From: Rosenbergiella sp. YN46
GTDB taxonomy: Bacteria; Pseudomonadota; Gammaproteobacteria; Enterobacterales; Enterobacteriaceae
Assembly: GCA_036620675.1 (NCBI GenBank)
Contig: JAZHEE010000002.1
Direction: 5' to 3' (one strand)
Length of the DNA: 32,000 bases
Shown here: positions 9,361 through 30,200 of the stretch, piece by piece
How positions within the stretch are numbered: the first letter of the stretch is position 1
Layout of the letters: every line of letters starts with the position of its first letter
Notes under the pieces: model-generated
Databases searched by the model: none
The model's input: only the letters and a program-made list of their open reading frames with translations
Told to the model about the DNA's origin: nothing
Made by a program: the position numbers and the translations under genes

Positions 9361-9361
9361 A

Positions 9362-11194: not shown

Positions 11195-11252
11195 GGGCTA
11201 TGTAGCAACATAGAGACAATTTCCCCCTGACGACAGATAGTTATCCGGCATT

Positions 11253-11801
11253 ATGCAATTTAATATACCAACCCTGCTTACGCTGTTTCGTGTTGTCCTG
11301 ATTCCGTTCTTTGTGCTGGCATTCTATCTGCCATTCCACTGGGCGCCATTTCTGTGCGCGTTTATCTTCTGCCTGGCAGCGGTGACGGACTGGTTTGATG
11401 GCTTTCTGGCCAGGCGCTGGAATCAGAGCACTCGTTTCGGTGCCTTCCTCGACCCGGTCGCCGATAAGGTGATGGTTGCGATAGCCCTGGTGCTGGTGGT
11501 GGAGCACTACCACAGTTGGTGGATGACGCTGCCGGCCGCAACCATGATTGCCCGTGAGATTATCATCTCCGCGCTGCGTGAGTGGATGGCGGAAATCGGC
11601 AAGCGTAGCAGCGTGGCGGTTTCATGGATAGGCAAAGTGAAAACCACGGCACAGATGTTGGCGCTAATCGGTATGCTGTGGCGGCCGAATATCTGGATTG
11701 AGTACGCCGGTATTACGCTGTTTTTCGTTGCCGCATTGCTGACATTCTGGTCAATGTTCCAGTATTTGAACGCCGCGCGCGGCGATTTGCTTGAAGGATG
11801 A
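11253..11801 (+). CDS. pgsA: CDP-diacylglycerol--glycerol-3-phosphate 3-phosphatidyltransferase
   Basis: 182 aa. [14 protein letters not shown]...[27 protein letters not shown] matches E. coli PgsA. Confidence 0.97.
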
Positions 11802-11851
11802 TCTATCCGCTGTAAAATTCAGCAAACGAGTCGGCGAGAGGGAAAATTTCG

Positions 11852-11879
11852 TTGACTCATTGCGTGAGGTAAGTAGAAT
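11852..11879 (+). promoter_or_regulatory. Sigma70-type promoter of the glyW-cysT-leuZ tRNA operon
   Basis: TTGACT (11852-11857), 16-nt spacer, TAGAAT (11874-11879), about 80 nt upstream of tRNA-Gly. Confidence 0.6.
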
Positions 11880-11957
11880 GCAACGCATCGAACGGCAGCA
11901 CGGTTCGCCAGACGATAGTGAAATCAAGTAATTAACCAGCGTTAACTACCTGATGAT

Positions 11958-12033
<76 letters not shown>

Positions 12034-12075
12034 GTTTTCAGCATCGGCCCTTACGGCGGGTGCCAAAAAGAATTT

Positions 12076-12149
12076 GGCGCGTTAACAAAGCGGTTATGTA
12101 GCGGATTGCAAATCCGTCTAGTCCGGTTCGACTCCGGAACGCGCCTCCA
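12076..12149 (+). tRNA. cysT: tRNA-Cys (anticodon GCA)
   Basis: 74 nt, GGCGCGTTAACAAAGCGG...GATTGCAAATC...GGTTCGACTCCGGAACGCGCCTCCA. Confidence 0.95.
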
Positions 12150-12161
12150 CTTTTTCCCCGA

Positions 12162-12247
12162 GCCCGGATGGTGGAATCGGTAGACACAAGGGATTTAAAA
12201 TCCCTCGGCCTTTGGCTGTGCGGGTTCAAGTCCCGCTCCGGGTACCA
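12162..12247 (+). tRNA. leuZ: tRNA-Leu (anticodon UAA), long variable arm
   Basis: 86 nt, GCCCGGATGGTGGAATCGGTAGACAC...GATTTAAAATC...GGTTCAAGTCCCGCTCCGGGTACCA. Close to E. coli leuZ. Confidence 0.95.
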
Positions 12248-12288: not shown

Positions 12289-12313
12289 AAAACCACCTTC
12301 GGGTGGTTTTTTT
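12289..12313 (+). terminator. Rho-independent terminator of the tRNA operon
   Basis: ACCACC-TTCG-GGTGGT hairpin followed by a T7 run. Confidence 0.85.
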
Positions 12314-12332
12314 GTGTCTGTCGTTTGCAGAG

Positions 12333-12361
12333 TGGCAGCAAAATGGCAGCAGCATGGCAGC
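12333..12361. repeat. Three direct TGGCAGC repeats at exact 11-bp spacing (candidate integrase arm-type sites)
   Basis: TGGCAGC at 12333, 12344 and 12355, lying between the tRNA terminator and the 3' end of int. Confidence 0.4.
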
Positions 12362-12379
12362 GTTGCTTTTTGCTGTCCG

Positions 12380-13387
12380 CTATTTTGCCTCTTCGCGGTT
12401 ATCAAAGGGATTAAGCGCTATAGCTGCATCCAGGTGGTTAGGGGCAAAGTGAGCGTACCGCATGGTCATCATGATGGTGCTATGCCCGAGTATCTGTTGC
12501 AGCACCAGAATATTGCCGCCACGCATCATAAAGTGACTGGCAAACGTATGACGCAGTACGTGGGTACGCTGTCCCTTTGGTAGTTCAATTCCAGCCCTCT
12601 TGAGTGCGGCCTTGAACGCTTCATAAGCAGGGGAGAACAGCGCCCCACGCTTTTTGGGTAACAGCTTTTGCAACTGATCGGAAATGGGTACGGTACGGTT
12701 CTTTTTGCTTTTGGTCTGGGTAAAGGTTATCCGCCCGGGCAGTACCTGGGATTGTTTCAGATCCTGAGCCTCACTCCATCGCGCGCCGGTCGCCAGGCAA
12801 ATCCTCACGATAGTACCCAGGCCTTTGTTGGCCGACTGATCACAGGCTGCAAGCAGTCGGTCAATTTCCTCTTCATAGAGAAAAGCCAGTTCCTGATCGC
12901 CTTCCTTGAACTGCCTGATCCCCGAAAGCGGGTTATCGCCTTCCCACTCTCCCAGCCGCTTCATTTCCGAAAAGACAGCGTGTAAATAAGACTGCTCGCG
13001 ATTTACGGTGGCTTCGCTAAGCTTCTTCTTTCCCTTCTGATTCCATTCACCGCTTAAGCGCCTTTCCCTGTAAACGGCAAAGGTATTTTTATCAAAATGA
13101 GTAGCAAGCGGATCCCCCAGGCGCTCGCAGATGGCAAGCAACTTCGTTTTTCTTTCTTTACCAGAAGACAGCGTTTTGCCGTGCATTTCATACCAGCGAT
13201 CAACAAATGCGGAGAGCGTTACCGCGTTATCGTTAACCGCCTGGCTGGATGCATTATTCATGGTACGGCGCTCGAAGGAGAGCGCCTCGCTTTTAGTAGC
13301 AAACTGCCTGCGTATACGCTTCCCATCGCGGCCATAGGGGAAGCACTGGCAAAGCCATTTACCTGATGGAAGTTTACGGACGGTCAT
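12380..13387 (-). CDS. int: Tyrosine integrase, P2/186 family
   Basis: 335 aa. MTVRKLPSGKWLCQCFPYGRDGKRIRRQFATKSEALSFE... and the C-terminal HVLRHTFASHFMM.GGNILVLQ..LGH....MTMRYAHFAP are colinear with coliphage 186 Int as I recall it. Confidence 0.93.
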   Translation of the reverse strand: MTVRKLPSGKWLCQCFPYGRDGKRIRRQFATKSEALSFERRTMNNASSQAVNDNAVTLSAFVDRWYEMHGKTLSSGKERKTKLLAICERLGDPLATHFDKNTFAVYRERRLSGEWNQKGKKKLSEATVNREQSYLHAVFSEMKRLGEWEGDNPLSGIRQFKEGDQELAFLYEEEIDRLLAACDQSANKGLGTIVRICLATGARWSEAQDLKQSQVLPGRITFTQTKSKKNRTVPISDQLQKLLPKKRGALFSPAYEAFKAALKRAGIELPKGQRTHVLRHTFASHFMMRGGNILVLQQILGHSTIMMTMRYAHFAPNHLDAAIALNPFDNREEAK

Positions 13388-13391
13388 AATT

Positions 13392-13733
13392 CTATTTGTC
13401 GCATAAAGCTAAAGCTGCGTTGGTAACATCGCTTAGGCTCTTTTTTAAACCTTTCGTTTTTTCGTCACTAAGCCAAAACTTATTATCGTTATCAAGTGGT
13501 AGAGCACCGAAAGAACGGCCATTAATACGCGCTGCGCCAGTAAGTGCGTATAGCTTGTTATCATCGAAATTCATCACGTAAGCGTTACCATCAAGACACT
13601 GTAACTGAACTTCATCAGCATTAAAGGGCCATACCCCTTTAAAACTTTCTTTTTCGATAGATTGAAATGGCATAGCGGATACTGTGGTAGAGATAAAGAG
13701 AGTTGATAAGGCAGCCAGTAATTTATGCTTCAT
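13392..13733 (-). CDS. Secreted YebY-like (DUF2511-like) protein, prophage cargo
   Basis: 113 aa with a signal peptide (MKHKLLAALSTLFISTTVSA). The pattern W.FN..EV.L.C...NA.YV.N ... LC at the C-terminus resembles E. coli YebY. GC is lower than the flanks. Confidence 0.65.
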   Translation of the reverse strand: MKHKLLAALSTLFISTTVSAMPFQSIEKESFKGVWPFNADEVQLQCLDGNAYVMNFDDNKLYALTGAARINGRSFGALPLDNDNKFWLSDEKTKGLKKSLSDVTNAALALCDK

Positions 13734-13761
13734 ATATGTAATTCCTTTTTAAGTTTATTAA

Positions 13762-14391
13762 TTAAAAAACAAGGGCACCTACAACAAAACCTACAGCGAA
13801 AATAAATCCGAACTCTTTGGGGTGCGCCCGCAGTAGTTCAACAATGTTGAGTCGTTCTGATGTGGGATTGCGAGGAGGTTGGTGTGTTTCCTGCGACGGT
13901 TGATCCAACCAGGATAGTGCAAGCTGAAGCTGGTTTCTGGTCAGATCGTTCAGTCTGCCTGTCCCAAAATTGATATGACAGTATCGGATCAGTTTTTGCC
14001 GGATGTCGTTGTCTTCGCTATTGCGGAGAAGAAGGCTCACCAGTGCCTTGCTGGCGTCTTTTTCCTTGCACCTGTCCAGTATGGCCTGAAGAAAGCTTAG
14101 GGCTGTCTGGTACTGGTTGACGGTCATATCCTCAATACTGGAAACGCCAACTTCTGCATGTACTTTTTGCCAGATGACAAACGCTTCATCGTTCCCGGCT
14201 TCTGCTATCGCAGCAACCAGGGCGTTGAGTTCTTTCCGCTGAGCCTTTACCAGCGGGCGTTTCTCTTCCTTCTCTGATGGAATGGCGATATTGACGGTAT
14301 GGCGCCCGTCAAAATGGTCTATCTGAACGCTATTTTCATGGAAGTCCTGACCCGCGATACGATTCTGCTCACCAGTAGAATTTACCGACAT
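13762..14391 (-). CDS. Hypothetical tail-anchored membrane protein co-oriented with the repressor
   Basis: 209-aa ORF starting 9 nt after the repressor stop. It has a single C-terminal hydrophobic helix (FGFIFAVGFVVGALVF) and two internal repeats of about 31 aa. I could not assign a family. Confidence 0.7.
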   Translation of the reverse strand: MSVNSTGEQNRIAGQDFHENSVQIDHFDGRHTVNIAIPSEKEEKRPLVKAQRKELNALVAAIAEAGNDEAFVIWQKVHAEVGVSSIEDMTVNQYQTALSFLQAILDRCKEKDASKALVSLLLRNSEDNDIRQKLIRYCHINFGTGRLNDLTRNQLQLALSWLDQPSQETHQPPRNPTSERLNIVELLRAHPKEFGFIFAVGFVVGALVF

Positions 14392-14399
14392 AAATCACC

Positions 14400-14786
14400 T
14401 TACTTCTTGTTTTCGTTGAAATCCCTGCCTGCTATGCGGTTGCCTGAGCCTGATACGTTGATTGAGTTTGATGCGGAGCTTCCGGCTGTAAGAGCAGCTA
14501 AAGCAGCAGCCTTAACTGCTAAAGGTGCTGACCTGTAAAGTTTAATTAATTCAATCTCATCATTGGTGATATCACCAATATCGGGGGTTCTTCTGCCGGT
14601 GAGAACATACAGTACATCCACCCCAGCATTAGCTAATGCTGTCAGATAGGCCCCGCCCGGTATTTTTTCGTCACGCTCATAAGTAGCTTGCGCCCCACGA
14701 GATCCCCCCGCTAATGCAGCAAAATCAGTTTGATTCAATCCCTTACGTGAACGCTCTTCTTTTAGTCTGCAACCTAAAGTAGTCAT
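14400..14786 (-). CDS. cI-like XRE-family HTH repressor
   Basis: I chose the ATG at 14786 (MTTLGCRLKEERSRKGLNQTDFAALAG... is a typical XRE HTH). The gene is divergent from the early operon, and no obvious SD precedes it, so the mRNA may be leaderless. Confidence 0.8.
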   Translation of the reverse strand: MTTLGCRLKEERSRKGLNQTDFAALAGGSRGAQATYERDEKIPGGAYLTALANAGVDVLYVLTGRRTPDIGDITNDEIELIKLYRSAPLAVKAAALAALTAGSSASNSINVSGSGNRIAGRDFNENKK

Positions 14787-14806
14787 TTTTATATAAAGTT
14801 GGTTTG

Positions 14807-14830
14807 CATTGACGCCTATAGCGGTCAATG
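14807..14830. promoter_or_regulatory. Candidate operator palindrome in the repressor/early-operon divergent region
   Basis: CATTGAC-N10-GTCAATG, a perfect 7-bp inverted repeat centred in the 84-bp intergenic region. Confidence 0.5.
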
Positions 14831-14870
14831 ATGTTTTCCACATACACTTAGCAGATCACAATATACCACT

Positions 14871-15083
14871 ATGACACAAGTACATCATGTTCAGCGGTCA
14901 CGTACCCCAAAAAACACCGTCGCGGGTGGCGCGCTTCCACTGCGGCTTTCTCCGGAGGAGCGCTCAACCATTGAGGCAATGGCAGAAGCTGAATGCCGTT
15001 CTGCATCCAATATGGCGCGTATCGTTTTCTTACGCGGGCTGGAGGTTATGCGGCCTGACCCGATTAACCAGACAGGTAATTAG
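14871..15083 (+). CDS. Ribbon-helix-helix (CopG/Arc-like) protein, possible Cro-analog
   Basis: 70 aa. LPLRLSPEERSTIEAMAEAECRSASNMARIVFLRGL fits the RHH beta-alpha-alpha pattern. It is the first gene divergent from the repressor. Confidence 0.55.
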   Translation: MTQVHHVQRSRTPKNTVAGGALPLRLSPEERSTIEAMAEAECRSASNMARIVFLRGLEVMRPDPINQTGN

Positions 15084-15169
15084 AAAAGCAGCGCTTACCA
15101 GGCCATCAATGAGAGTCTGTCTGCCTGAAGTGGATGAAAAAGTTAATGATATTTGCCTTGAGGTGAAAA

Positions 15170-15373
15170 ATGTCAGGTGTAACTATCAATTTAAATGTGG
15201 CGGCGCCTTATTTATCGCTAAAAGAGTATGCCAGAGTGACAGGGATACCCTTTAACACCTGCCGGGATATGGTGAAAGACGGACGGATAATTATTCGTCC
15301 TAAAGAACTGGCCGGAGGAAAGGTTGAGGTTAATATGGTTGCCATGCTCAAGGACGCTATAGCAAATAGCTAA
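15170..15373 (+). CDS. Apl/Cox-like small HTH protein (excisionase/regulator)
   Basis: 67 aa with SD GAGGTG. LSLKEYARVTGIPFNTCRDMVKDGRI resembles the excisionase-type HTH of P2/186 Cox/Apl, and the position is as in 186. Confidence 0.5.
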   Translation: MSGVTINLNVAAPYLSLKEYARVTGIPFNTCRDMVKDGRIIIRPKELAGGKVEVNMVAMLKDAIANS

Positions 15374-15386
15374 CGGAGAAAATATT

Positions 15387-15629
15387 ATGTTTAACCCGCT
15401 AAATAAAGATTACACGCTATCCATCAACCCCTTTTCTGATAGCAATACCTATGATGTGCCGACATATATCAAACCGGGCACTAAAGTGACGGTTGCTATT
15501 GATTCGCGAGAACAAGAAATAGCCATTCTTGCCGCCTACGATTACGGCATTGATGCGCTGAATAAAGAAGGGCGCGAAGAATTAAATCGTTTAATCGCTG
15601 ATCTGAAAGTGGCTATCACAGGGCGGTGA
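15387..15629 (+). CDS. Hypothetical phage early protein
   Basis: 80-aa ORF with GGAGAA upstream, tightly packed in the operon. Confidence 0.55.
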   Translation: MFNPLNKDYTLSINPFSDSNTYDVPTYIKPGTKVTVAIDSREQEIAILAAYDYGIDALNKEGREELNRLIADLKVAITGR

Positions 15630-15630
15630 C

Positions 15631-15834
15631 ATGAGTCAGTTAATACAGTTAAGTCGTCACTCGTATTTATATCGTGGTTTTACTATCCAGAAGTGTCCGC
15701 GCAATCCTTTTACGCTGACAAACTCTTACAGCATTTTTAGTAATGGGGATTATTACGGGCGCGACTTTGCATTGGCTGAGGCTATGCGGACGATTGACGG
15801 TATGCATAACAAAAGGGGGCGCTATGTACGATGA
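15631..15834 (+). CDS. Hypothetical phage early protein
   Basis: 67-aa ORF whose start lies 1 nt after the previous stop (TGACATG). Confidence 0.5.
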   Translation: MSQLIQLSRHSYLYRGFTIQKCPRNPFTLTNSYSIFSNGDYYGRDFALAEAMRTIDGMHNKRGRYVR

Positions 15835-16045
15835 AGGCCCATCACTGGCGAGCCTGCTAAAGCAAGGATGCCAGGTAACACACTTCAAAAATTCGCGTGG
15901 TTGGCTGGAAACGCCAGACGGGAGATTTTTTAAGCCCGAACCGGCGAAGGTTCAATTTATCAAGGGTAAAAATAAACCATTTATTTATACCCAAAGAATA
16001 AATAAAAGCTTCCTGCTTTCCTTTATTGAATTATTTAAAAAATAA
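15824..16045 (+). CDS. Hypothetical phage early protein
   Basis: Internal ATG at 15824 preceded by GGGGG and overlapping the previous gene's end. 73 aa and Lys-rich. Confidence 0.4.
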   Translation: MYDEGPSLASLLKQGCQVTHFKNSRGWLETPDGRFFKPEPAKVQFIKGKNKPFIYTQRINKSFLLSFIELFKK

Positions 16046-16140
16046 TTAAGTAATTCGGTTTTAAAAAATCAAATCTGTTTTATCCACCTCTTTATTGAGT
16101 GGTTGCGGTTCAGCTCATTCTTTTTATGAAGGTTTTCATT

Positions 16141-16344
16141 ATGACTAAGCGCGAACAATACAGCTTTATTCTCAACATTCTGTTGCCAGCCGTCGAGCGT
16201 GAGGGCATGACCATTAAAACCCGCCGCGATGGTGAATTAACTATCAGGCCAACCGATCCCGCCGTCGTCAATTTCATTAGCGAAATGCGTAGCAGCCTGG
16301 AGGCTGAGCTACAGCGCCCAATCATCAACACCGTTATCTACTGA
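16141..16344 (+). CDS. Hypothetical phage early protein
   Basis: Internal ATG at 16141. 67 aa, following an AT-rich spacer. Confidence 0.5.
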   Translation: MTKREQYSFILNILLPAVEREGMTIKTRRDGELTIRPTDPAVVNFISEMRSSLEAELQRPIINTVIY

Positions 16345-16354
16345 GGAAACCACC

Positions 16355-16933
16355 ATGAATCACCTGATGATCGATCTGGAAACTATGGGTACCGATGCCA
16401 GCGCGCCGATAGCGGCTATTGGCGCGGTGTTTTTTGAGCCGTCCACCGGACACACCGGCGCGCGCTTTTATGAGCGGGTTGATTTTGTGACGGATATCAG
16501 CATGGGGGCGGTGCCTGACGGTGAAACCATTAAATGGTGGTTAAAGCAGGGCAGTGAAGCCAGGGCCGAATTAGTGGCCGATGGCGCATTACGTATCTGG
16601 GATGCTCTGACGAAACTACGTGATTTTATTGAAGAGCACGCCCTACCCAATGACCTGGAGCTTTTGCAGGTGTGGGGGAATGGGGCGTCGTTTGACTGCG
16701 TTTTATTGCGCGCGGCCTATGGGCGTTGCGATCTCGAAGTTCCGTGGAAATGGTGGAACGATCGCGACGTTCGTACCGTTGTTGAAATGGGGCGTTCCGT
16801 AGGTATTGACCCGAAGCGTAATACAGCTTTTCGCGGCACTCGTCACAATGCGCTGAATGATGCTATCCACCAGGCTGCTTACGTATCGGAGATTTGGCAG
16901 CGCCTGGCGATGAATGGGGAGGACGTAATATGA
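16355..16933 (+). CDS. DnaQ-like 3'-5' exonuclease (phage type)
   Basis: 192 aa. MIDLETMG (Exo I DxE), WGNGASFD (Exo II) and HNALNDA (Exo III H..D) form the DEDDh pattern. This is the usual partner of dam in P2-like early regions. Confidence 0.8.
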   Translation: MNHLMIDLETMGTDASAPIAAIGAVFFEPSTGHTGARFYERVDFVTDISMGAVPDGETIKWWLKQGSEARAELVADGALRIWDALTKLRDFIEEHALPNDLELLQVWGNGASFDCVLLRAAYGRCDLEVPWKWWNDRDVRTVVEMGRSVGIDPKRNTAFRGTRHNALNDAIHQAAYVSEIWQRLAMNGEDVI

Positions 16934-17154
16934 TCCGCCCGTTCATCAAATGGCCTGGCGGCAAAAGCCGCGTGATGCCTGAACTGCTGCCGCACATGCC
17001 TAAAGCCGATTGCCTGATAGAACCCTTCGTTGGCGGTGCTGCGGTATTCCTCAATACAGATTATCGTCGCTACGTACTGGCAGATATCAATCCCGATCTG
17101 ATCCGCCTGTATCGCGAGGTTAAGAGCAACCCTGATTTGCTGACGCCCTTCTAA
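16930..17154 (+). pseudogene. dam: DNA adenine methylase (Dam), N-terminal ~70 codons only, truncated at the IS junction
   Basis: FIKWPGGKSRVMPELLPHMPK..CLIEPFVGGAAVFLNT...Y.LADINPDLI is colinear with the first quarter of E. coli Dam. The frame ends 3 nt before the IS110 transposase stop. Confidence 0.85.
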
Positions 17155-17157
17155 GAG

Positions 17158-18234
17158 TCAAGCCGTTATCGGGATGCTGTTGACCTGCCTGTTTTGATTT
17201 CGCAGTAATGTATAAACCTCGCGTGAGATATAGCGCTTCAGGCAGCGTATTGCTTCCATTTTTGTGTGTCCTTCGGCTACTCGCCTGGCGACATATTCCT
17301 TCGTCTTATCATCAGTTCGTAAACGTCCGATAGCGATGATGTGAAGTGCACTATTTGCAGCACGATCCCCACCCCGGTTAAGCCTGTAACGATTTGTTTT
17401 CCCAGATGATACGGGAACAGGGCTGACACCACACAATGCCGCAAAACCTGGTTCTGATCTTAATCGTTGGGGATTGTCTCCGGCAGTTATCAGCAATTGT
17501 GAAGCGCTTTCGTACCCAATAGCATTACGTTTGATCAGTTCAGGTGCCAGCTCATCGACAATTGCCGCAATCATGACATCTAAATCAGCGATTTCGTCAT
17601 GTAACTCAAGATAGCGTCTGGCAAGGGACTTCAATGAAATGCGATAGACGTTGGTAACATTGCGGTATTCACTGACATCAGGCCTCCAGGATCCCAGAGT
17701 CCTGATGAGCTGCATGCGTGTCATAGTTCTGAGCTGTTCGCGTAATTCATCCGGTGCAGAGATAATATTGGAATGGATAATCTGGAGAGCGACCCTGCGG
17801 GCTGATACCGCTGTTTTACGGCAAGTTTTTAACACCCTAAGAGACTCAATCATGCCATTGCGAGTTTTGGGGGTGACTGTTCTGATTCCGGAGAATGCGG
17901 CATGAGCAGCACATTCAGCATCAATCGTGTCACTTTTTCCCCGCTTGCGTCGTTCCATTCGGTCTGGCGCAGTTACTTCAAGGACTTCTAACCCGACATT
18001 CTGGAAATAGCGAAGCAGTCCGGAACCATAGGTGCCGGTGCACTCAACGCCAATTCGTTTTAACGCTCCAAACGACGCCATCCATGTCAGCATTTGGCGA
18101 TACCCTTGCCGTGTGGCGGAGAAATACTGGGTACCCAGGACTTTATTGTTTTGATCAACAACAGCGGCAACGTGCAGATCTTTATGTGTATCGACACCAC
18201 CAACAATGGCGGTTTCGGTAACGTTATTAGCCAT
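17158..18234 (-). CDS. IS110-family DEDD transposase/recombinase
   Basis: 358 aa. The N-terminus GGVDTHKDLHVAAV...IGVECTGTYG (RuvC-like DEDD) and the C-terminal IPGIG-less ...LCGVSPVPVSSGKTNRYRLNRGGDRAANSALH segment are typical of IS110 transposases. AGGAG lies 9 nt upstream. Confidence 0.9.
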   Translation of the reverse strand: MANNVTETAIVGGVDTHKDLHVAAVVDQNNKVLGTQYFSATRQGYRQMLTWMASFGALKRIGVECTGTYGSGLLRYFQNVGLEVLEVTAPDRMERRKRGKSDTIDAECAAHAAFSGIRTVTPKTRNGMIESLRVLKTCRKTAVSARRVALQIIHSNIISAPDELREQLRTMTRMQLIRTLGSWRPDVSEYRNVTNVYRISLKSLARRYLELHDEIADLDVMIAAIVDELAPELIKRNAIGYESASQLLITAGDNPQRLRSEPGFAALCGVSPVPVSSGKTNRYRLNRGGDRAANSALHIIAIGRLRTDDKTKEYVARRVAEGHTKMEAIRCLKRYISREVYTLLRNQNRQVNSIPITA

Positions 18235-18515
18235 GACACGACTCCTGTAAGGAAACAGAGTTGAATCTCCAGACAGATAACCCGGACAGGACAGTAACGA
18301 GACAAGCCGTCAGGCCCTTCTTGAGTCACGCGCACCGGTGAGGAGATGCCTCGCATGAAGGCGCTTCCGGCAACCGACGGGTCCAGGGCAGGACACAAAA
18401 GGTCGATCGCTGTGTGAGTCAGGATGCGGGAAGGTCTTCACTGCATCAGTAATCACATCAATCTGGTTAAACGGCAAACGGAGTGATGATAAAAACTGAC
18501 ACCGGCATTATTACT
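18235..18515 (-). ncRNA. Candidate IS110 bridge (seeker) RNA region in the 5' non-coding end
   Basis: This is only positional inference: a GC-rich non-coding stretch between the IS end and the transposase ATG, where IS110-group elements encode their guide RNA. I have not folded it. Confidence 0.3.
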
Positions 18516-19127
18516 ATCGCTATGTACGATGACCTCGCCGTCCGGTTTTCGGCGCCAGACCGCCATCATCAGCGCGTCGAGCGCCAGTTCGCGTGAGAGG
18601 GTGGGTTTCATCGACCAGCCGACCACATTACGGGCGAAGAGATCGATAACCACCGCCAGATACAGCCAGCCCTGCCAGGTGCGGATATAAGTAATATCGG
18701 TGACCCAGACCTGGTTGGCCCGGACAACGGTGAACTGCCGCTGCACGCGATTAGGAGCAACGATTGAAGGCCTGCCAGCGATACGACGTGGCGCTTTATA
18801 GCCGCGCACGGCTTTAATCCGGTTCAGTTGCATGATCCGACCCACCCGGTTTTTACCGCAGGTTTCCCCGATTTCGTTCAGATCGCCATGAACCCGCCGG
18901 TAACCGTATACGCCTCCGCTCAGGGAATATGAGTCGCGGATAAGCATCAGCAGGCGCTGGTTATCTTTATCACGCGCCGAGACCGGGTTATGCAGCCACG
19001 CATAGAACCCGGCCCGGGGGACATTCAGTACCCGACACATTGTCATGACACCCCATACAGTGCGGTGCTCATTGATAAAGCGGTACTTCAGTCGGGCTCC
19101 CTTGCAAAGTACCGCGCGGCCTTTTTC
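18516..19127 (-). pseudogene. IS3-family transposase OrfB (DDE), truncated
   Basis: The -1 frame is open from the slippery site (..LKYRFINEHRTVWGVMTMCRVLNV..WVTDITYIRT..GWLYLAVVIDLF.R..VGWS). The tail after HSD is unrelated sequence ending at 18453. Confidence 0.8.
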
Positions 19128-19372
19128 AGGATATCCCGTTCTTCTTCGGTGCGTTTTAGCTGCGCCCGGAGTTTCAGGATCTCGCTTTTAGCTTCCAGTA
19201 AATCCCGGGCATGCTGCTCGCTGTTATCAGGTTTGATAGCCCGTAGCCACTTGTAGAGGCTGTGTGCAGAGACGCCCAGACGGTCAGATACTTCGGCGAC
19301 GGAATAACCGCGTTCCGTTATCTGACGGACGGCTTCTTCCTTAAATTCAGGTGTAAATCGTGGTGTGCCCAT
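19088..19372 (-). CDS. IS3-family transposase OrfA (HTH)
   Basis: 94 aa. FTPEFKEEAVRQI....SVAEVSDRLGVS..SLYKWL plus a leucine-zipper-like tail ending ILKKAARYFA. Confidence 0.9.
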   Translation of the reverse strand: MGTPRFTPEFKEEAVRQITERGYSVAEVSDRLGVSAHSLYKWLRAIKPDNSEQHARDLLEAKSEILKLRAQLKRTEEERDILKKAARYFAREPD

Positions 19373-19446
19373 ACGCTCCTCCTGTGCTCAAACTATAGGG
19401 CAGGATCGTCTACCGGGGCGGGGTCAGTCCAACGGTTACTGGCGCG

Positions 19447-19755
19447 TCAGTCGCTTTCATATTCCTTCAGAGACGAACTCACCTTTTCTCTTACGAGTTG
19501 CAGGAAACTGAGGGCATCAGTGCCCCATAAGTCAGGATCAAACTCCAGGTCGTAGCGTTTCCTGAACGCTTCTTCCGGATTGTCAGCACTTTCAAGGAAA
19601 AGATCAATATCAGCGATTAATCCATAGCGCATAGCGAAGTGGCTATCGGCGATAAATGCGTCAATTTTTGGTTCAATTTCATCACTGTCATCAATAAGAT
19701 CGTAATCCTGCCCGAAGTAAACAGTGATAAAGCAGTCAAACTCATTGAGGTTCAT
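19447..19755 (-). CDS. CdiI-like immunity protein, paralog 2
   Basis: 102 aa and acidic. The motif F..VYFGQDYDLIDDSDEIEPKIDAF is shared with the upstream paralog. Its start overlaps the stop of paralog 1 by 14 nt. Confidence 0.6.
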   Translation of the reverse strand: MNLNEFDCFITVYFGQDYDLIDDSDEIEPKIDAFIADSHFAMRYGLIADIDLFLESADNPEEAFRKRYDLEFDPDLWGTDALSFLQLVREKVSSSLKEYESD

Positions 19756-20059
19756 TATTCAGATCCTGCCGGACCTTTTCCCTTGCGAATTTCAGGAAGT
19801 CATGGGGGGTTGTGCCCCAAAGTTCTGGCACAAAATACTCGCCGTAAACATCATGGAACGTCCTGTCCAGGGCTTCACCTAAAGCCAGAAATTCATCAAT
19901 ATCATCAAGAAGCGCCAGCTGCATTGGTCGTCCGGAGTGTTTATTATAGGCATCGATCTTTGGCTGAATCTCTTCACTGTCGTCGATAAGGTCATAATCA
20001 TGACCGAAATAATTACAGATAAAATTATCCAGCTCCCGAGCCTTATCTTTAACAAACAT
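19742..20059 (-). CDS. CdiI-like immunity protein, paralog 1 (probable cognate immunity)
   Basis: 105 aa and acidic. F..NYFGHDYDLIDDSEEIQPKIDAY is the pattern I associate with contact-dependent-inhibition immunity families. The gene starts 23 nt after the toxin stop, with GGAG upstream. Confidence 0.6.
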   Translation of the reverse strand: MFVKDKARELDNFICNYFGHDYDLIDDSEEIQPKIDAYNKHSGRPMQLALLDDIDEFLALGEALDRTFHDVYGEYFVPELWGTTPHDFLKFAREKVRQDLNNEPQ

Positions 20060-20082
20060 AACTTACTCCATTGGCATTGAGG

Positions 20083-20901
20083 TTACGATGAAATAGGGCT
20101 TCCCGTTACGTTATATTCGGTAAGTTCCAGCCAGAGCTCAACGCGATAACATTTCCGAACTTCAGAACTACCCCTCTTTATGACAATGCCGGTTGGTTGA
20201 GCGAAGGTAGTGGAAAATTTTTTCCGCCAGGGGGTACCTTTGGGTTGATGACGCACGAACATTTCAATGGCATTTTTATGTTCTCTCAACACCTTTGTTG
20301 TCAGCCTTTCTGCTTCATCCAGATTTCTGAAAGAGCTTGCTGCGGGTAACCCGGGACGTCTTCCGAGCCTTGCCAGTAGCTCTTCTGGCGTTTTACCTAC
20401 GTGGCGTTCCAGCGTATGCCCACCAGGGTGCTTTCCGGTTGCTGACTCATGTATCGCCAGTTTTATCCTTCCGTTGCGAACGGCTGCAATACGGACGGCG
20501 CTGACGGCCAGTGCAAATCCCATAGGGATAGCGAGATCAACTGTCATTCCAACATGAGCAGCGGTCTGGCGATCGGCTCCCAGTCCTTCGGCCAGGGATA
20601 CAGCAGTATTGTAGGTATCGGTATTGATCTGCCTGCCGGTCCACATCTGGCGTACGGAAGCCTGTATGGCATCCAGGCTGTGGGTGCCTACGATGACACA
20701 ACCGGCTTTAGTGAGCATAGTGGGATCGGGGGCGACGCACATGACGCCTGCTCCAAACATTTCTGCCACGCCGCCTGCCAGCCCCAGACCTCCCCACAGA
20801 CGGTTACTGAGGGTTTCCCCCTCGCTGACGGATTTATCGGTCAGAACAGCGGCAAGCTGAACCGGGGAGAGGGCCATTCTGACCCCACCATCGTCTGTCA
20901 T
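20083..20901 (-). CDS. Polymorphic toxin: Gly-rich membrane-helix N-domain plus C-terminal bacterial RNase A-like (CdiA-CT type) domain
   Basis: 272 aa with GGGAG 9 nt upstream. The N-terminal half has Gly-zipper-like hydrophobic helices (LWGGLGLAGGVAEMFGAGVMCVA; DLAIPMGFALAVSAVRIAAV). The C-terminus GKHPGGHTLERHVGKTPEELLARL...FRNLDEAE resembles the RNase A-like CDI toxin family. An immunity-type gene follows. Confidence 0.65.
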   Translation of the reverse strand: MTDDGGVRMALSPVQLAAVLTDKSVSEGETLSNRLWGGLGLAGGVAEMFGAGVMCVAPDPTMLTKAGCVIVGTHSLDAIQASVRQMWTGRQINTDTYNTAVSLAEGLGADRQTAAHVGMTVDLAIPMGFALAVSAVRIAAVRNGRIKLAIHESATGKHPGGHTLERHVGKTPEELLARLGRRPGLPAASSFRNLDEAERLTTKVLREHKNAIEMFVRHQPKGTPWRKKFSTTFAQPTGIVIKRGSSEVRKCYRVELWLELTEYNVTGSPISS

Positions 20902-21053
20902 ATCAAGGACTCCCTGTTGTGCTTAAAAGGCTGGCACCATCATAACAGCCATAAGCATTAATTTTCATAATCGCAAAAAGAGTTTATCGCTGACCGTCCT
21001 TCTTGTCCTGCGCATTCTGTACGCACCTTTTTAATCCCCCTGTGGAGGTGTGT

Positions 21054-21401
21054 ATGAATCAACCCTGTCTGGCCCGGCGTCTGAGCGCTCGTATTCCGGG
21101 CATCACTGGCCTGCTGTTGCTGGCCGCTTTATCCGTATCAACGTCAGTCCGGGCTGCCGAGAAAGACGAACTGGCGTCGGCCCTGCGTCAGTTGGACCAG
21201 GTGCAGGCATCTCTGGAGCGGGCCCGCGTGGCTGCAGCCCAGGCTGATCCGGCAGAGCGTGGCCGCTTTTTCTTTGACTACCGACAGGCAACATCCGACC
21301 TGAACACGATTCGGGGCGGTGTTGAGCGCTATCTGGAACCTTCCCGGGCGCAGCCCCGGTCATCGCATATCGGCGGTCATTACCGCCGGGAGCGTCCCTG
21401 A
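21054..21401 (+). CDS. ICE protein, RAQPRD family (variant RAQPRS)
   Basis: Internal ATG at 21054 preceded by GGAGG. It has a signal peptide, ELASALRQLDQVQASLERA, and the signature SRAQPRS near the C-terminus. Confidence 0.7.
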   Translation: MNQPCLARRLSARIPGITGLLLLAALSVSTSVRAAEKDELASALRQLDQVQASLERARVAAAQADPAERGRFFFDYRQATSDLNTIRGGVERYLEPSRAQPRSSHIGGHYRRERP

Positions 21402-21637
21402 TGAATGCTGCGCAGTCCACGGCCTTTAAAGCCGGTTCAGGAGATATCGAAGTCAGCATTCTGCACCTGGTCTGTATCGGAGCGCTGCTGGCATTTCTGT
21501 TTCTCTGGACCGCCTGGGCGTTTGTGGATGTCTGGAGTGGCTGGAGTAACGAGAGAGTCCGCGATGCCGCACTGGTGCGCTTTGCCATCCGCGCGGTGCT
21601 GCTGTTGGTTATTTGCATCTGGATGTTCGCCAGCTGA
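21401..21637 (+). CDS. ICE small membrane protein (PFL_4701/TIGR03758-like)
   Basis: 78 aa with two TM helices. It is translationally coupled (TGATG) and in the expected position after the RAQPRD gene. Confidence 0.6.
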   Translation: MNAAQSTAFKAGSGDIEVSILHLVCIGALLAFLFLWTAWAFVDVWSGWSNERVRDAALVRFAIRAVLLLVICIWMFAS

Positions 21638-21668
21638 ACGCTGTTTTTAATTTTTTCAGGAGAAATAC

Positions 21669-22055
21669 ATGAATCAATCTCAGTCTGTTATTGCCCGGAT
21701 TCGTTGCGGTGCCGAGCGCGTTTTGGCCCGGGGGATGGCCCTGGCATTACTGGCCTGGCTGACCTGTCAGCCAGCACTGGCCGATCTGCCTACGGTTGAG
21801 CCGCCGCAATCCGGTGGAGGCAGTGGCCTGATGGGGCAGATTAAAGGATATCTGCAGGACGGTATTGTTCTGGTTGGTCTGGTGCTGGCAGCGGTTGCCT
21901 TTGTGAAGGTGGCTGAAGCGGGGTTGTCTACATACGCGGAAGTCCGCGATAAGAAAGCAACGTGGGGCCAGTTTGGCGCCATCGTAGTCGTAGGGGTGGT
22001 GTTGTTGGTCACTGTTATCTGGTTGGTGGGCAAGTCTGCCGACATCATTCTGTGA
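21669..22055 (+). CDS. ICE membrane/pilin-like protein (PFL_4702/TIGR03745-like)
   Basis: 128 aa with a long signal-like N-terminus, the ADLPTVE..P motif and two TM helices. The position is conserved in this ICE family. Confidence 0.6.
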   Translation: MNQSQSVIARIRCGAERVLARGMALALLAWLTCQPALADLPTVEPPQSGGGSGLMGQIKGYLQDGIVLVGLVLAAVAFVKVAEAGLSTYAEVRDKKATWGQFGAIVVVGVVLLVTVIWLVGKSADIIL

Positions 22056-22061
22056 GGCCAT

Positions 22062-22346
22062 ATGCAGACCATTCGCTTTATACCTGACCGTCTCAACAGT
22101 GAGCCTGTAGTGTTTCGCGGGTTTACCACTCCGGAGCTGGGGCTGGCTGCGCTGGCGGGTCTGGGGGCGGGTCTGCTCCTGTCGTTACCGTTCATTCCAC
22201 TTGCCGGCTGGGTCATTGTGCCCACCGGCATGCTGGTGATGCCGCTGCTGCTTATCTGGTCCGGAGGCCGGTGGCTCAGTCGCCTAAAGCGATTATTTTT
22301 TATCTCACTGTTGTTTCCCAGTTTAGTGGGGTTCATGGTGGGGTAG
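22062..22346 (+). pseudogene. ICE conjugative-transfer membrane protein (PFL_4703/TIGR03750-like), truncated after ~75 codons
   Basis: The N-terminus MQTIRFIPDRLNSEPVVFRGFT.PEL and TM helices fit the family. After ...GGRWLSRLKR the frame runs into unrelated (LysE-derived) DNA. Confidence 0.6.
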
Positions 22347-22525
22347 GAAACTACCTGGCCTTAGCATCCGTTCACATAGCGGTAATGAGTATCTGGCTCA
22401 TTGCTGTTAGTCGTACCTTGGTTTTCTCTGCCAAAAATACCGATCCTGTCATTCTTAAAAAATATGTGAATATAGCTGGGGGAGCCCTGCTTATTATTTT
22501 TTCACTACACAGTCTCACTCATTAA
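22271..22525 (+). pseudogene. LysE/RhtB-family amino-acid exporter, C-terminal fragment only
   Basis: SPKAIIFYLTVVSQF... plus the following TM helices match the second half of LysE-type translocators. The N-terminal half is absent and replaced by ICE DNA. Confidence 0.65.
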
Positions 22526-23073: not shown

Positions 23074-23334
23074 TTATTTACAACAACCGGTCACTATACT
23101 TGTCACACTCCCGGAGCTGATATTGATGATATTGCTTATCCCACATGATTGGTTTAAATCGACGTTGTCCATATTGTTTTTTATTGAATTCTCAATGGAT
23201 TGACCTAAGTTTGACAGGTCGGGCAGGTGCTTATTTATAGCGGCGTTGAGTTGTTTATTGAAATCAGCCATAAAACCATCAAGGAAGCCAGCACCAGAAA
23301 CTTCATTTACCTCGTAAGAATTTAATATACGCAT
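23074..23334 (-). CDS. Candidate class II microcin-like precursor (double-glycine-type leader)
   Basis: 86 aa with AAGGA 8 nt upstream, in an AT-rich locus. The N-terminus MRILNSYEVNEVSGA|G has the length and pattern of MccV/MccL/MccH47 leaders. The core is Asn/Ser-rich with three Cys near the C-terminus. Confidence 0.5.
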   Translation of the reverse strand: MRILNSYEVNEVSGAGFLDGFMADFNKQLNAAINKHLPDLSNLGQSIENSIKNNMDNVDLNQSCGISNIINISSGSVTSIVTGCCK

Positions 23335-27207: not shown

Positions 27208-30200
27208 TCAAAATAAATATTTCACACCTAAAATGGCCTGTGTATCGCTGTATCCTTTGCCACCAATCTGTTGGGCTACATTCCCCCATAGATTCACATT
27301 ACGGTTGAGTTGACTCTCGACTCCTACTTTTACCTCGCCGATATTTCGGGTTCCTGCCTGTCCCACGTGAACTCCATTAAGCGATGCTCCGAAATCCTTT
27401 GTGTTATGCAGCCAGTTTAGCTCTACAAATGGCTCAAAGGTACGCTCCTTCCCTTCATCAATAACACTGCGTCCTTTAATAAATGCCCTGACGCCAAGGC
27501 GGGACTGAATATTACCGTCGCCAGAGCTATGTACCCGCGTCCCGTTTACTTCCCGATGAGCATCGGCTTTTACTCCCATCCATATCAGTTGAGCTACAGG
27601 CTGAATGTAATAGCTTTCACGCTCATTTCTTTCCCCTGTTTTCCAGGTATAACCTGTTTCCACAGATGCCGTAATACCTTTCGACTTATAGCTTTCAGAG
27701 GGTAGCGACTGGCCACTGATACGGTTATTAAACCAGTTATACAGCACCCAGGTGTCAACATAACCCCCCGTCTTTTGCTCATTGTCCTGGAACCAGGTGC
27801 CATATATCCCGGTACTGTAGCCATTGACGCTGCCGTCAGCCCGGTAACTATTGTGAGTATTACGGGTGTTGCTCTTCTGGTTTGCGTAGCCGCCCATAAT
27901 CCCGAGATGGAAACGATTTTGACCGTTGCTGCTCCACTGTGCGATATCGCCCCCCAGTTGCATAACATAGCGGTTGGCCTGTGTGTTCAACTGACCACTG
28001 CTATCCTTAAACCGGGTGTGTCCGCCGATATGACGTAACCACATACTGGTCACTTGTTCCTCACCGCTCAGGGCATCCACATAGTGAGTTTCTCCAAGAC
28101 GATCGTGTAACCGGTGTACAAACAATGTATTTGCAGCTTGCAGATTGGTTGCATATTCGCTTCCTTCCGGGCGAATGTCAGGCTGCGGAGCTGGTTCCGG
28201 TGAGGGTTCAGGCCCCGGCCCCGGCCCCGGCTCCGGCTCCGGCTCTGGATTAGGCCTGGTGTTGATAAGATACCAGTTGGCATAGTCATTCCCTTTACCG
28301 CGGCTTAAATAATATTCATAGGCGCCACCCACTATGCGTCCGCTTTGCACAAAGGTACCTTCCGAATGGCCTGCTACGCTAATTAATTCAATGCCTTTAT
28401 TGGTATAAGCACCGGTACCACCTGTGTTATTCACCTGTACAAAGGTGGTGCCAGCTGTATTTCCCTTGATAATCAGTCGGTCGGTTTTTGAGGCATCATT
28501 TCCAAGGACAGTGTTGAACTCAATGTGTCCATTATTCCCGATGTAGTTCCCTTCAACCAGAAGAGTATTGCCGACCCGTTGTTGTTGATTACCTGTATTT
28601 CCGGCAATTATTACGCTTCCGGTATTGATTAATTCTTTATCAATAAGGAGTTGGGCAGGGCGCTGTTTTTTATTATATAAACTGCCTACCTTAAGAGTTG
28701 CGCCATTCATTACCTGTGTTTTACCGAGGTAGCCCTCAGCAGAAAGCATGCCACCCGTTTGTACAGATATCTCACCGCCTAAAGCATTGGACGAATCCAG
28801 ACCGCCATGCTGAACGGATACTTTTCCTGCGTAACCTCCACTATCGCCGCTTAAGTATAAAGTAGAGAGACCGCTTTTCTCGATATACCCTGAACCTGCG
28901 AATGAGCCAGCATAATGGCTGTTTGAGTTTTGATTAACGATTAGGTTGGCATCCGTGATATCTACCTCACCGCCCCTGCCTGAAAGGTATGACATCGTCA
29001 AATCATGACCGTTAAGATTCAGTTTACCGGCATTGATAATATATGAGGTATTATTTACTAATGCGCCATCACTGTCTGACCGAAGTTCTCCGGCCTCTAT
29101 TCGCGTTCCGCCTGAGTAACTATTTAACCCAGAAAATACCACCAGACCATCGCCTGATTTGACTATCCCACCATTTCCTTTTAATGAACCGTTAAGATGC
29201 ATTTCTTTATTATTGCCGGATTCCAGCACTGATTCTGAGAGTACATTCATATCTACGCGGGTGGACAGTTTGTCATCGCAGTAGTCACATTCATTTACCC
29301 GGAGAGTTCCTCCATTAAGATTAAATGAATAAGAGCCGGCACCGGAAATTATCGCGTCCTGATCAGGCGATAACTTACTGTTGGCGATAGTCATAAATCC
29401 ATCTTTATTCAGGTTGACTGTCGCAGATGTATCATTGCTGCTTGCCAGGAACAGGCCGGAAACCGGATTTTCAAAACCATCTGCATCAGTATTAGCTTTG
29501 CCTTCAAAAATGACTTCGCCGTAGTTATCAATATTAAGAACCGCCGATCCGGCACCCTTTTGTTTTACTTTCACATCGATAGACTGGAGATCGTCAAGTG
29601 CATCAGCGGCCAGGGACATTTGGCTACCGACGATTAAACGGCTACCGCTTCCTGAAACAGTGATTTCAGCAGAGGGGGAGCTATCAGTCAAGTAAGTGTT
29701 ATCGTCTGCTAAGGTTGTTGACGCGCTTATCCTTCCGGCATATAACTTTCCTCCATCGGTGATATTAATTATTCCCCTGCCAATAAAACCAAGATATAAC
29801 GAACCATTTTCAACAGAATCACCAAGATAAGGAGCATTGTTTTTTAAAATCAATGCGCTACCAGAACCTGAGATATTTAAAATTCCTGTGTTGCTGGCGT
29901 TTCCTGTACCTATGTATGCTTTGTTTTTAGAGAAGTTTTTTTCTTCACCGACGTTCATGACCGCGCCGTCAAGTATATTCAATACACCTGTTACTTCACT
30001 ATCTCTTTGGGTATTCCAGTCAAAATTCCCACTACTACCAACGCGGAGATCGAGTGAAGTCACCTCCCCAATTTGTGGGCCAACAAGATTTAGTATGCCA
30101 TGAGTGTTATAGATGGGGGTTCTTTCGGTTGTGACGGTGCCAACAGCAAAATAGGTAGTGTTATTTATATTTGTTGCGGACTCAGATAGGGTTAATGAAC

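Follow-up and report, generated by a model that had tools for sequence, protein, structure and literature searches.

Among the closest described relatives of the locus considered here is the CdiA-CT/CdiI pair of Yersinia kristensenii ATCC 33638 (PDB 5E3E), an RNase A-like toxin with its immunity protein, in which alanine substitutions of the toxin (H175A, R186A, T276A and Y278A) each abolish growth inhibition, the T276A variant keeping some activity in vitro (PMC5435912). The locus itself lies within 32,000 nucleotides of Rosenbergiella sp. YN46 (GenBank assembly GCA_036620675.1, contig JAZHEE010000002.1), the whole of which we refer to as the window, and consists of three consecutive minus-strand open reading frames (ORFs), a toxin gene followed by two small immunity genes, imm1 and imm2, as a preliminary description of this DNA had laid out from its letters. 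It has in common with the Yersinia pair an RNase A-like fold, aligned His-Arg and Thr/aromatic positions, and immunity of the CdiI_2 type; it differs in that there is no CdiA filament, VENN motif, TPS or FHA domain or cdiB gene, in that a different module precedes the RNase, and in that the window allele is without the strand that carries the Thr/aromatic positions. The pairing of toxin and immunity is already known, being of a structurally solved type, and the genes already carry corresponding names in public annotation ('RNase A-like domain-containing protein' and 'contact-dependent growth inhibition system immunity protein' in RefSeq). What is new is that the unannotated N-terminal half is a distinct and widespread module, which ties stand-alone effectors to the C-terminal regions of Rhs proteins and to DUF4225, and not to the PIX class.

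The layout of the locus also recalls other systems. PIX effectors (Pse3 and Pse4 of Pantoea agglomerans; bioRxiv 10.1101/2023.07.16.549128) are likewise orphan genes of Enterobacterales, encoding proteins of ~280-350 aa with a conserved N-region of ~140 residues and a variable toxin, with an adjoining immunity gene and no genes of a type VI secretion system (T6SS) nearby. Proteins with DUF4225 are T6SS effectors in Vibrio (PMC9765294) and are secreted in a T6SS1-dependent manner in P. agglomerans (bioRxiv 10.64898/2026.08.01.741415). The helical core of these proteins (PMC9765294; the Pse9 proteins of P. agglomerans) is like that found here, and many DUF4225 proteins are also without a recognisable delivery domain; however, in DUF4225 toxins the domain is terminal, lytic and periplasm-acting and is accompanied by a membrane immunity protein, whereas here the module is N-terminal, is followed by an RNase that acts in the cytoplasm, and has no membrane immunity gene. 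Finally, the bipartite C-terminal regions of Rhs and CdiA proteins, together with orphan C-terminal-toxin/immunity modules, display the same conserved-then-variable layout, the same swapping of cassettes and the same orphan immunity genes downstream. Unlike these, the present locus carries neither an Rhs core fragment nor an rhs or cdiA gene upstream, and it possesses a promoter-like site and Shine-Dalgarno (SD) sequence of its own as well as a 30-residue head that is absent from the Rhs versions.

Results

We consider it probable that the locus is an orphan polymorphic effector-immunity cassette, likely to have been cargo of a T6SS, that is now reduced to an immunity island; that it is at root an effector-immunity locus is very likely. 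The C-terminal part of the window protein matches PF18431 (RNAse_A_bac) at E 4.5e-24 over residues 161-264, with 85.9 bits against a cut-off of 27 bits, and the intact 277-aa allele described below scores 104.2 bits over model positions 1-113. A phmmer search of PDB with the intact protein returns the Y. kristensenii CdiA-CT chain, 5e3e_B, at E 3.6e-8, and pairs His167 with His175, Arg178 with Arg186, Thr272 with Thr276, and Met274 (Phe or Tyr in relatives) with Tyr278. In an AlphaFold2 model of the intact allele, with a mean predicted local distance difference test (pLDDT) score of 82.8, the last strand (residues 266-276) pairs with strand 253-263, and the C-domain of this predicted structure matches 5e3e_B with a Foldseek E of 7e-8, a TM(target) of 0.84 and 28% identity. 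The domain is basic, with an isoelectric point (pI) of 10. Sequence and predicted fold together show a predicted RNase A-like nuclease of the CdiA-CT(Ykris) family, as had been proposed for this region from the letters alone; the Pfam model is matched above its cut-off, the predicted structure superposes on the Yersinia toxin, and the catalytic His and Arg are in place.

The window copy of this nuclease is, however, incomplete. The closest database protein, P0001, has 277 aa and is 100% identical over 97% of the window protein; it ends in ...LTEYNGKPYFIVTSMPME and the window product in ...LTEYNVTGSPISS. The contig that encodes P0001 (L001) aligns with window positions 21244-19430 with 0 mismatches over 1,810 bp and a single gap of 5 bases, TAACG being present in two copies in the window and in one copy in L001. 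With one TAACG copy removed, the ORF again runs to 277 aa and stops 3 nt ahead of the ATG of imm1; a conserved ...NGKPYFIVTSMPME end is also shared by the remaining full-length homologues that were examined (271-281 aa). The duplication was missed in the preliminary description, which gave the protein 272 aa; that length is the product of a frameshift, in which the terminal β-strand is replaced by eight unrelated residues and the Thr272 and Met274 positions are lost. Of the active-site set only His167 and Arg178 are kept, whereas the 277-aa allele, of which WP_175342297.1 is an example, has all four residues, and the lost stretch includes K266, Y268, T272 and P275, each at least 90% conserved among 107 homologues. 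The window toxin is very probably inactive, because its last β-strand is gone, and with it the counterparts of Thr276 and Tyr278, whose alanine mutants abolish growth inhibition, and for purposes of annotation its gene is a probable pseudogene.

Other members of the family are also disrupted. A second disrupted allele, P0294, falls in the same 90% cluster and diverges at an A6T4 run, and N-domain-only truncated genes of the family occur on contigs of 100 kb to 830 kb. Decay of the toxin with its 5' half kept seems to be common in the family, and similar decay has been reported for Pse5 of the PIX class (bioRxiv 10.1101/2023.07.16.549128). The N-domain-only or frameshifted homologues recorded on contigs of 70 kb to 830 kb are P0109, P0119, P0122, P0123, P0124 and P0294.

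Both genes downstream of the toxin remain intact. They encode acidic paralogs of about 100 aa, 47-49% identical to one another (49%, E 5e-27), and both match PF18593 (CdiI_2) above its cut-off of 26.7 bits, imm1 with 54.3 and imm2 with 58.2 bits; the best PDB match of the immunity profile is CdiI(Ykris), 5e3e_A. Their nature as immunity paralogs, and the overlap of the second gene with the first by 14 nt (ATGAACCTCAATGA), had been correctly noted. The equivalence of the two, on the other hand, is not borne out. The imm1 gene shares 98% identity with the neighbour of the intact toxin gene in Jejubacter sp. L23 and 71% with the immunity gene of an 81%-identical Brenneria toxin. For imm2 the corresponding values are 94% against P0298, the immunity gene that accompanies toxin P0012 on a second integrative and conjugative element (ICE) of Jejubacter sp. 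L23, and 74% against the Klebsiella aerogenes immunity gene. Relative to the window-type toxin, P0012 is 95% identical in the N-domain and 45% in the C-domain, and the K. aerogenes toxin 77% and 46%, and between alleles the immunity genes co-vary with the toxin C-domain. By these comparisons imm1 is of the cognate type and imm2 is an orphan, a putative immunity gene against the sister toxin allele; orphan immunity of this kind makes sense if toxins arrive from neighbours.

The origin of the two alleles can be read at the DNA level. When the module of the second Jejubacter ICE (L094) is compared with the window by blastn, it matches only at 20378-21178 (89%) and at 19430-19759 (94%). The first block runs from the upstream region through the N-domain into the RNase domain, as far as a GKT.EEL motif; the second is imm2. 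The unrelated stretch between them (Table 1) is a footprint, left when a C-terminal-toxin/immunity cassette replaced an older C-terminal part and the old immunity gene was left behind, and the 14-nt overlap marks the right-hand joint of the swap.

The preliminary description had also held that the protein bears no delivery domain, which goes too far. It is a stand-alone protein to the extent that a signal peptide, PAAR, Rhs, VENN and LXG all went without a match in it (Pfam, NCBIfam); yet its N-terminal 150 residues constitute a conserved module, related to DUF4225, that also opens the C-terminal regions of Rhs proteins. The AlphaFold2 model places helices at residues 13-21, 25-56, 62-88, 95-106 and 111-142, hydropathy peaks at about residues 38-57 and 113-142 (19-residue Kyte-Doolittle mean up to 1.97), and a Foldseek comparison of the N-domain with PDB structures gave nothing significant. 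An exhaustive profile search, in contrast to a search of the 90% clustered database that returned only RNase-linked or truncated proteins, brought out other architectures, with 835 proteins matching the N-domain profile at E <= 0.001. These include proteins in which the full 150-residue domain is followed by the RNase (class A) and proteins in which the core alone, at profile positions of about 25-140, lies within other proteins (class B). In nine of ten class-B proteins tested, the TIGR03696 Rhs-core motif ends 1-130 residues before the module core, and P0277 has RHS repeats as well. Downstream of the core there are at least 10 mutually unrelated C-terminal regions of 110-250 residues, one of them an anthrax-lethal-factor-like protease (ATLF, in P0253) and several others possibly nuclease-like, as judged on motifs alone. 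An hhalign comparison of the class-A N-domain with the class-B cores of Rhs C-terminal regions gives a probability of 99.95% and E 1e-37 over columns 26-138, and the motifs NRxWG, PEPTMLTK, H..D and WTG are common to both classes.

The relation to DUF4225 (PF13988, gathering score 25.9 bits) runs through these same proteins. Its model matches 10 of 32 class-B relatives over the core stretch (best E 1.7e-7) as well as P0277 at 26.9 bits, and the N-domain profile matches such proteins at E ~1e-22 over the same stretch; two class-A-like proteins that bear RNAse_A_bac are matched by the DUF4225 model as well. On the window protein itself, where a test of this model had been proposed, Pfam gave no match to DUF4225 at E <= 1, and the homology of the cores stands at the level of profiles. 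Because the link is transitive, we name the module 'DUF4225-related' and do not count it as a member of the family. Weak matches of the N-domain to DUF6310 and to holin family 2 were seen and are not relied on. Taken at the level of profiles and predicted structure, the comparisons show the module to be conserved, helical, partly hydrophobic and DUF4225-related, and it takes the place of the first part in bipartite toxin regions.

Further features of the module bear on how it might be used. Its first 30 residues (LSPVQLAAV...) are peculiar to the stand-alone class, with P13, Q15, A17 and A18 invariant. Relatives with 55-115 extra N-terminal residues have neither PAAR nor another Pfam domain in the added stretch, and some of these may have mis-called starts. 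Two cysteines, C55 and C68 (window 20698-20700 and 20737-20739), are at least 90% conserved in the 107 homologues and flank a PDPT turn between two long helices; a disulfide between them could form, which would point to a periplasmic step.

Identity with the PIX class, suspected from the taxonomy and the orphan layout, was rejected: with filters off, hmmsearch gave -1.6 bits, and hhalign gave a probability of 0.13%. The comparison protein was WP_023334001.1 (row 71 of the authors' list, PIX at residues 1-131), corresponding to L029:6685-7749 and to NZ_KI535657.1 1496040-1497104 and retrieved via acetyltransferase synteny. For Pantoea vagans C9-1, a different protein, and not the RNase A-like WP_041456389.1, is among the entries of the PIX list that are listed.

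Table 1. Coordinates of the effector-immunity locus and its flanking elements in the 32,000-nucleotide window of Rosenbergiella sp. YN46.
Feature	Position	Strand	Description
Toxin ORF	20083-20901	minus	272 aa; frameshifted allele of a 277-aa RNase A-like effector; from the ORF list
N-terminal helical module	20452-20901	minus	Residues 1-150; 'LSPVQLAAV' head, then DUF4225-related core with NRxWG...PEPTMLTK...H..D...WTG
RNase A-like domain kept in the window allele	20110-20430	minus	Residues 158-264; holds His167 and Arg178; PF18431 model positions 1-102 of 113
Tandem TAACG-TAACG	20104-20113	minus	Extra 5-bp copy aligned at 20109-20113; frame shifts after Asn264; global alignment with L001
Original toxin 3' end, now out of frame	20063-20104	minus	Encodes GKPYFIVTSMPME*; includes Thr272 and Met274
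imm1	19742-20059	minus	105 aa, pI 4.5; cognate-type CdiI_2; Pfam CdiI_2 E 2.4e-14
imm2	19447-19755	minus	102 aa, pI 4.05; orphan CdiI_2 of other specificity class; Pfam CdiI_2 E 1.4e-15
Swapped cassette	19760-20377	minus	618 bp: variable RNase part (from about residue 176) and imm1; unrelated at the DNA level to the sister module of the second Jejubacter ICE
Promoter-like site	20939-20968	minus	ATGAAA, 18-nt spacer, TG-TATGAT; 38-67 nt upstream of the toxin ATG; consensus scan, match only
IS block	17158-19429	minus	Partial IS3 (orfA 19088-19372, truncated orfB 18453-19046) and IS110 transposase gene 17158-18234; Pfam HTH_Tnp_1, rve, DEDD_Tnp_IS110
ICE remnant	21003-22346	plus	RAQPRD, TIGR03758, TIGR03745, truncated TIGR03750 (NCBIfam)

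The toxin gene has its own start and SD sequence, as described before, with AGGGAG 8 nt upstream of the ATG. A promoter-proximal stretch of 30 nt upstream of the gene is 90% identical between L001 and the K. aerogenes module (L003), and since the promoter-like site is kept in the K. aerogenes cassette, the cassette seems to carry its own expression signals with it as it travels, as far as a consensus match can suggest.

Full-length homologues that are positive for PF18431 (271-281 aa) were found in Pantoea, Erwinia, Brenneria, Serratia, Enterobacter, Klebsiella aerogenes, Kosakonia and Yokenella, and more distant ones in Roseateles, Ralstonia and Rhizobium; the family is mainly one of Enterobacterales, with outliers in Burkholderiales and Rhizobium. 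A CdiI_2 gene lies directly 3' of the toxin gene in all ten neighbourhoods examined, and neither a conserved upstream gene nor a membrane immunity gene was found near the homologues examined. The contexts are varied: ICEs (the window, L001, L094 and L096), chromosomal islands (Brenneria, K. aerogenes and Enterobacter), a Pseudomonadota chromosomal locus (L010), a prophage-like region (Roseateles), the Pantoea plasmid pPag2 and a Ralstonia megaplasmid. No cdiA or cdiB gene was detected in the window or in the homologous loci (Pfam, NCBIfam), and the layout of a contact-dependent growth inhibition (CDI) system of the type V secretion (T5SS) kind was not found. When the module was searched for at near-identity DNA level, the IS3 end alone came up in 5,426 E. 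coli genomes and 72,556 plasmids. In Brenneria, an AIDA-I/MisL-like autotransporter gene lies just after the cassette.

In Enterobacter cloacae the RNase cassette adjoins an acetyltransferase gene, and the same gene is the upstream neighbour of PIX effectors in the authors' list. Gene content shows this slot to be an effector hotspot, at which the RNase cassette and a proven T6SS effector class are alternative cargoes. Across Enterobacter chromosomes (L006-L008 versus L029 and L015) its contents vary with the species, and the slot holds the RNase A-like cassette with SymE/RhuM genes, or a PIX effector with an immunity gene of 95-99 aa, or other genes.

Discussion

It is reasonable to postulate, from the foregoing, the following course. 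The intact protein would leave the cell as an orphan cargo effector, its most likely exporter being a T6SS whose genes lie elsewhere, with the N-module serving loading and/or passage across the inner membrane of the target. The RNase would degrade RNA in the target cytoplasm, presumably tRNA and rRNA by analogy with CdiA-CT(Ykris), and imm1 would bind the cognate RNase and cover its active site in the manner of CdiI(Ykris). As for its history, the sequence shows that the allele pair arose by a swap of the variable RNase part and immunity gene behind the conserved N-region, and that the 5-bp duplication has since removed the last β-strand from the window copy, such that the locus most likely acts today only as a two-gene immunity island.

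As to the export route, we lean modestly towards a T6SS. The link is circumstantial, and comes from the Hcp-Tlde1 module that is carried on the same ICE (described below), from the slot shared with PIX effectors, and from the Rhs and DUF4225 relatives of the N-module. Batot et al. 2017 named the group 'putative T6SS effectors' (PMC5435912), and in a Klebsiella survey RNAse_A_bac figures, with no further particulars, as one of the domains found in database 'Tse' effectors. Among the three proposals of the preliminary description, the strongest support goes to an effector that leaves by a system whose genes lie elsewhere.

A number of observations weigh against this interpretation. The survey of homologue neighbourhoods that had been proposed as a check turned up no T6SS structural, adaptor or chaperone genes, and no CDI or type VII secretion (T7SS) genes, within 8-12 kb in the ten neighbourhoods, the Hcp-Tlde1 cargo pair aside; more specifically, genes for vgrG, hcp, PAAR, DUF4123, DUF1795 and DUF2169 are absent within that distance from nine of the ten, and the tenth has hcp 7 kb off, as separate ICE cargo. 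Orphan effectors are known to have no such T6SS neighbours. The similarity to DUF4225 is for the most part transitive, the DUF4225 model giving weak matches in only 6 of 107 class-A proteins (best E 0.014). Moreover, DUF4225 has been described as a periplasm-acting lytic toxin and not as a delivery domain (PMC9765294), and a membrane immunity gene, as found with DUF4225 toxins, is not present at the locus. We found no paper in the literature that tests secretion of the stand-alone RNase A-like family. Lastly, the duplication in the window allele could be an assembly error, or its product could have residual RNase activity.

The position of the cassette in an ICE invites a role within the producing cell, in which the toxin, checked by imm1, would stabilise the ICE or kill infected cells, as the preliminary description had suggested in proposing addiction or abortive infection. 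The cassette does occupy one and the same ICE site, beside DtrJ-like/DUF4400 and coupling-protein genes, in the window, L001 and both Jejubacter ICEs, the toxin is without a signal peptide, and toxin and immunity genes are adjacent. ICE linkage, however, is found in only two of the ten neighbourhoods examined, the other eight not being ICEs, and the long N-domain is conserved far beyond the needs of an intracellular toxin-antitoxin (TA) pair. The N-module is also better conserved than the toxin, opens Rhs C-terminal regions and has C-domain and immunity gene swapped behind it, a pattern that characterises exported polymorphic toxins, unlike type II TA systems, and an orphan immunity gene to a foreign allele makes sense only with toxins from outside; the addiction role is thereby weakened, and we regard it as very unlikely. 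Delivery by the type IV secretion system (T4SS) of the ICE itself, or by some other route such as vesicles, lysis or bacteriocin-like self-translocation, with the N-module acting in recognition or membrane insertion, also seems to us improbable. It would account for a cassette that sits inside the transfer gene cluster of two ICEs with no T6SS gene close by besides the Hcp cargo, and would suit an N-module with two hydrophobic helical hairpins and weak holin-like matches, and might apply to the ICE-borne copies, but most family members lie far from conjugation genes and would be left unexplained by an ICE T4SS, Pfam brought up no XVIPCD or similar C-terminal T4SS signal domain, and the core of the module has relatives in Rhs proteins and in DUF4225 proteins that are exported by T6SSs in Vibrio and Pantoea.

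A different question is whether the N-module is itself a toxin. From the periplasm, E. coli is lysed by a Vibrio DUF4225 protein (PMC9765294), the WHIX class includes T6SS effectors that bear two toxic domains (PMC12135965), and the conserved C55 and C68 would, speculatively, fit a periplasmic disulfide, all of which would suit an effector whose N-module damages the membrane or wall in the periplasm while the RNase acts as a second, independent toxin. We nevertheless give this reading little credence, as both downstream genes encode soluble, acidic CdiI_2 proteins and neither a membrane immunity gene nor a conserved small ORF upstream is found in the homologues examined; the N-domain, furthermore, is nearly constant while the RNase and its immunity gene diversify together, and therefore selection for specificity would act on the RNase only. 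It is, finally, unlikely that the window allele is still a working toxin, whether through a frameshift that is an artefact of sequencing or assembly or through sufficient activity of the 272-aa protein. His167 and Arg178 are kept, both immunity genes are intact, and T276A of the homologue is partly active in vitro (PMC5435912); yet a tandem duplication of 5 bp is unlike the typical homopolymer error, and the 272-aa product is on the NCBI record, where it lies on a 337-kb contig of the assembly. The loss of strand 266-276 with K266, Y268, T272 and P275 in exchange for eight unrelated residues also speaks for inactivity, since T276A and Y278A abolish growth inhibition in the homologue (PMC5435912).

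What merits follow-up is the N-module, more than the defunct window copy in which it was met. Should a role in loading or translocation be proven for it, the module would supply a marker for finding orphan effectors and a way into the question of how T6SS nucleases get across the inner membrane. We would go further only tentatively, and think it on balance doubtful, in proposing that the DUF4225-related 'PEPTMLTK' module is a widely reused inner-membrane translocation (cytoplasm-entry) module for toxins that act in the cytoplasm, and not only a lytic toxin, which would make it the T6SS/Rhs counterpart of the CdiA-CT entry domains, and that the 30-residue head is an unnamed signal for loading on the T6SS spike or tube, defining a new class of orphan effectors beside MIX, FIX, RIX, PIX and WHIX. 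The locus also records the evolution of a polymorphic toxin in several stages, namely a swap with visible breakpoints, an orphan immunity gene kept against a sister allele that is found on a second ICE in a related genome, and then decay of the toxin while both immunity genes persist. ICEs are in this way shown to carry interbacterial weapons, the RNase cassette and Hcp-Tlde1, between Enterobacterales.

Carrier element and remainder of the window

The module lies, as previously described, between an IS3 end (at 19429) and the remnant of an ICE (genes from 21003). The block of insertion sequences (IS) cuts the ICE 17 nt after the imm2 stop, where identity to L001 ends at 19430, and on the other side the resemblance to other ICEs gives out at about 22291, within TIGR03750, by blastn against plasmid- and ICE-borne copies; ~2.9 kb of the ICE remains in the window. 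At the equivalent site of Jejubacter an intact ICE has the order ParA, coupling protein, DtrJ-like/DUF4400, imm2, imm1, toxin, RAQPRD, DUF3262, DUF3487, DUF2895, DUF3438, TraC, Hcp-Tlde1 cargo, DUF1525 and TraU. This comparison shows that IS elements have deleted most of the carrying ICE. The cargo, which is missing from the window, is found at L096:1679-3109 between TraC and DUF1525/TraU and encodes Hcp (PF05638, 1.2e-31), a Tlde1-domain protein (1.9e-14) and a 194-aa ORF, 7 kb from the toxin cassette in the Jejubacter sp. L23 ICE; by its domains it is a putative T6SS auxiliary module riding within the conjugation gene cluster.

The flanking genes uvrY, uvrC and pgsA and the tRNA-Gly/Cys/Leu genes (8707-12247) are chromosomal and 89% identical to Jejubacter sp. 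L23, and the window uvrC is 77.5% identical to that of E. coli. After tRNA-Leu, the stretch 12310-16933 contains a tyrosine recombinase gene (12380-13387), a DUF2511 gene, a Flk-like ORF and a gene for a helix-turn-helix (HTH) repressor, where Jejubacter has the ParA end of the ICE; it is either a second island or the result of an IS-mediated rearrangement of the ICE ends. A gene for an Rv2179c-like 3'-5' exoribonuclease (16355-16933) precedes a Dam methylase gene that is cut after ~70 codons (16894-17154) and adjoins the IS block.

Beyond the other end of the ICE remnant, a fragment of a LysE/RhtC-type exporter gene (22271-22525, plus strand) abuts the truncated TIGR03750 gene, and a gene for a 1075-aa autotransporter of the AIDA-I/MisL type lies at 27208-30435 on the minus strand. 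An ORF of 86 aa with MRILNSYEVNEVSGAG/FLDGF...TGCCK is located just beyond the truncated ICE end (23074-23334, minus strand); it has no Pfam or NCBIfam match and no exporter gene is evident close by, and its N-terminus resembles the double-glycine leader of class II microcins of the ColV type.

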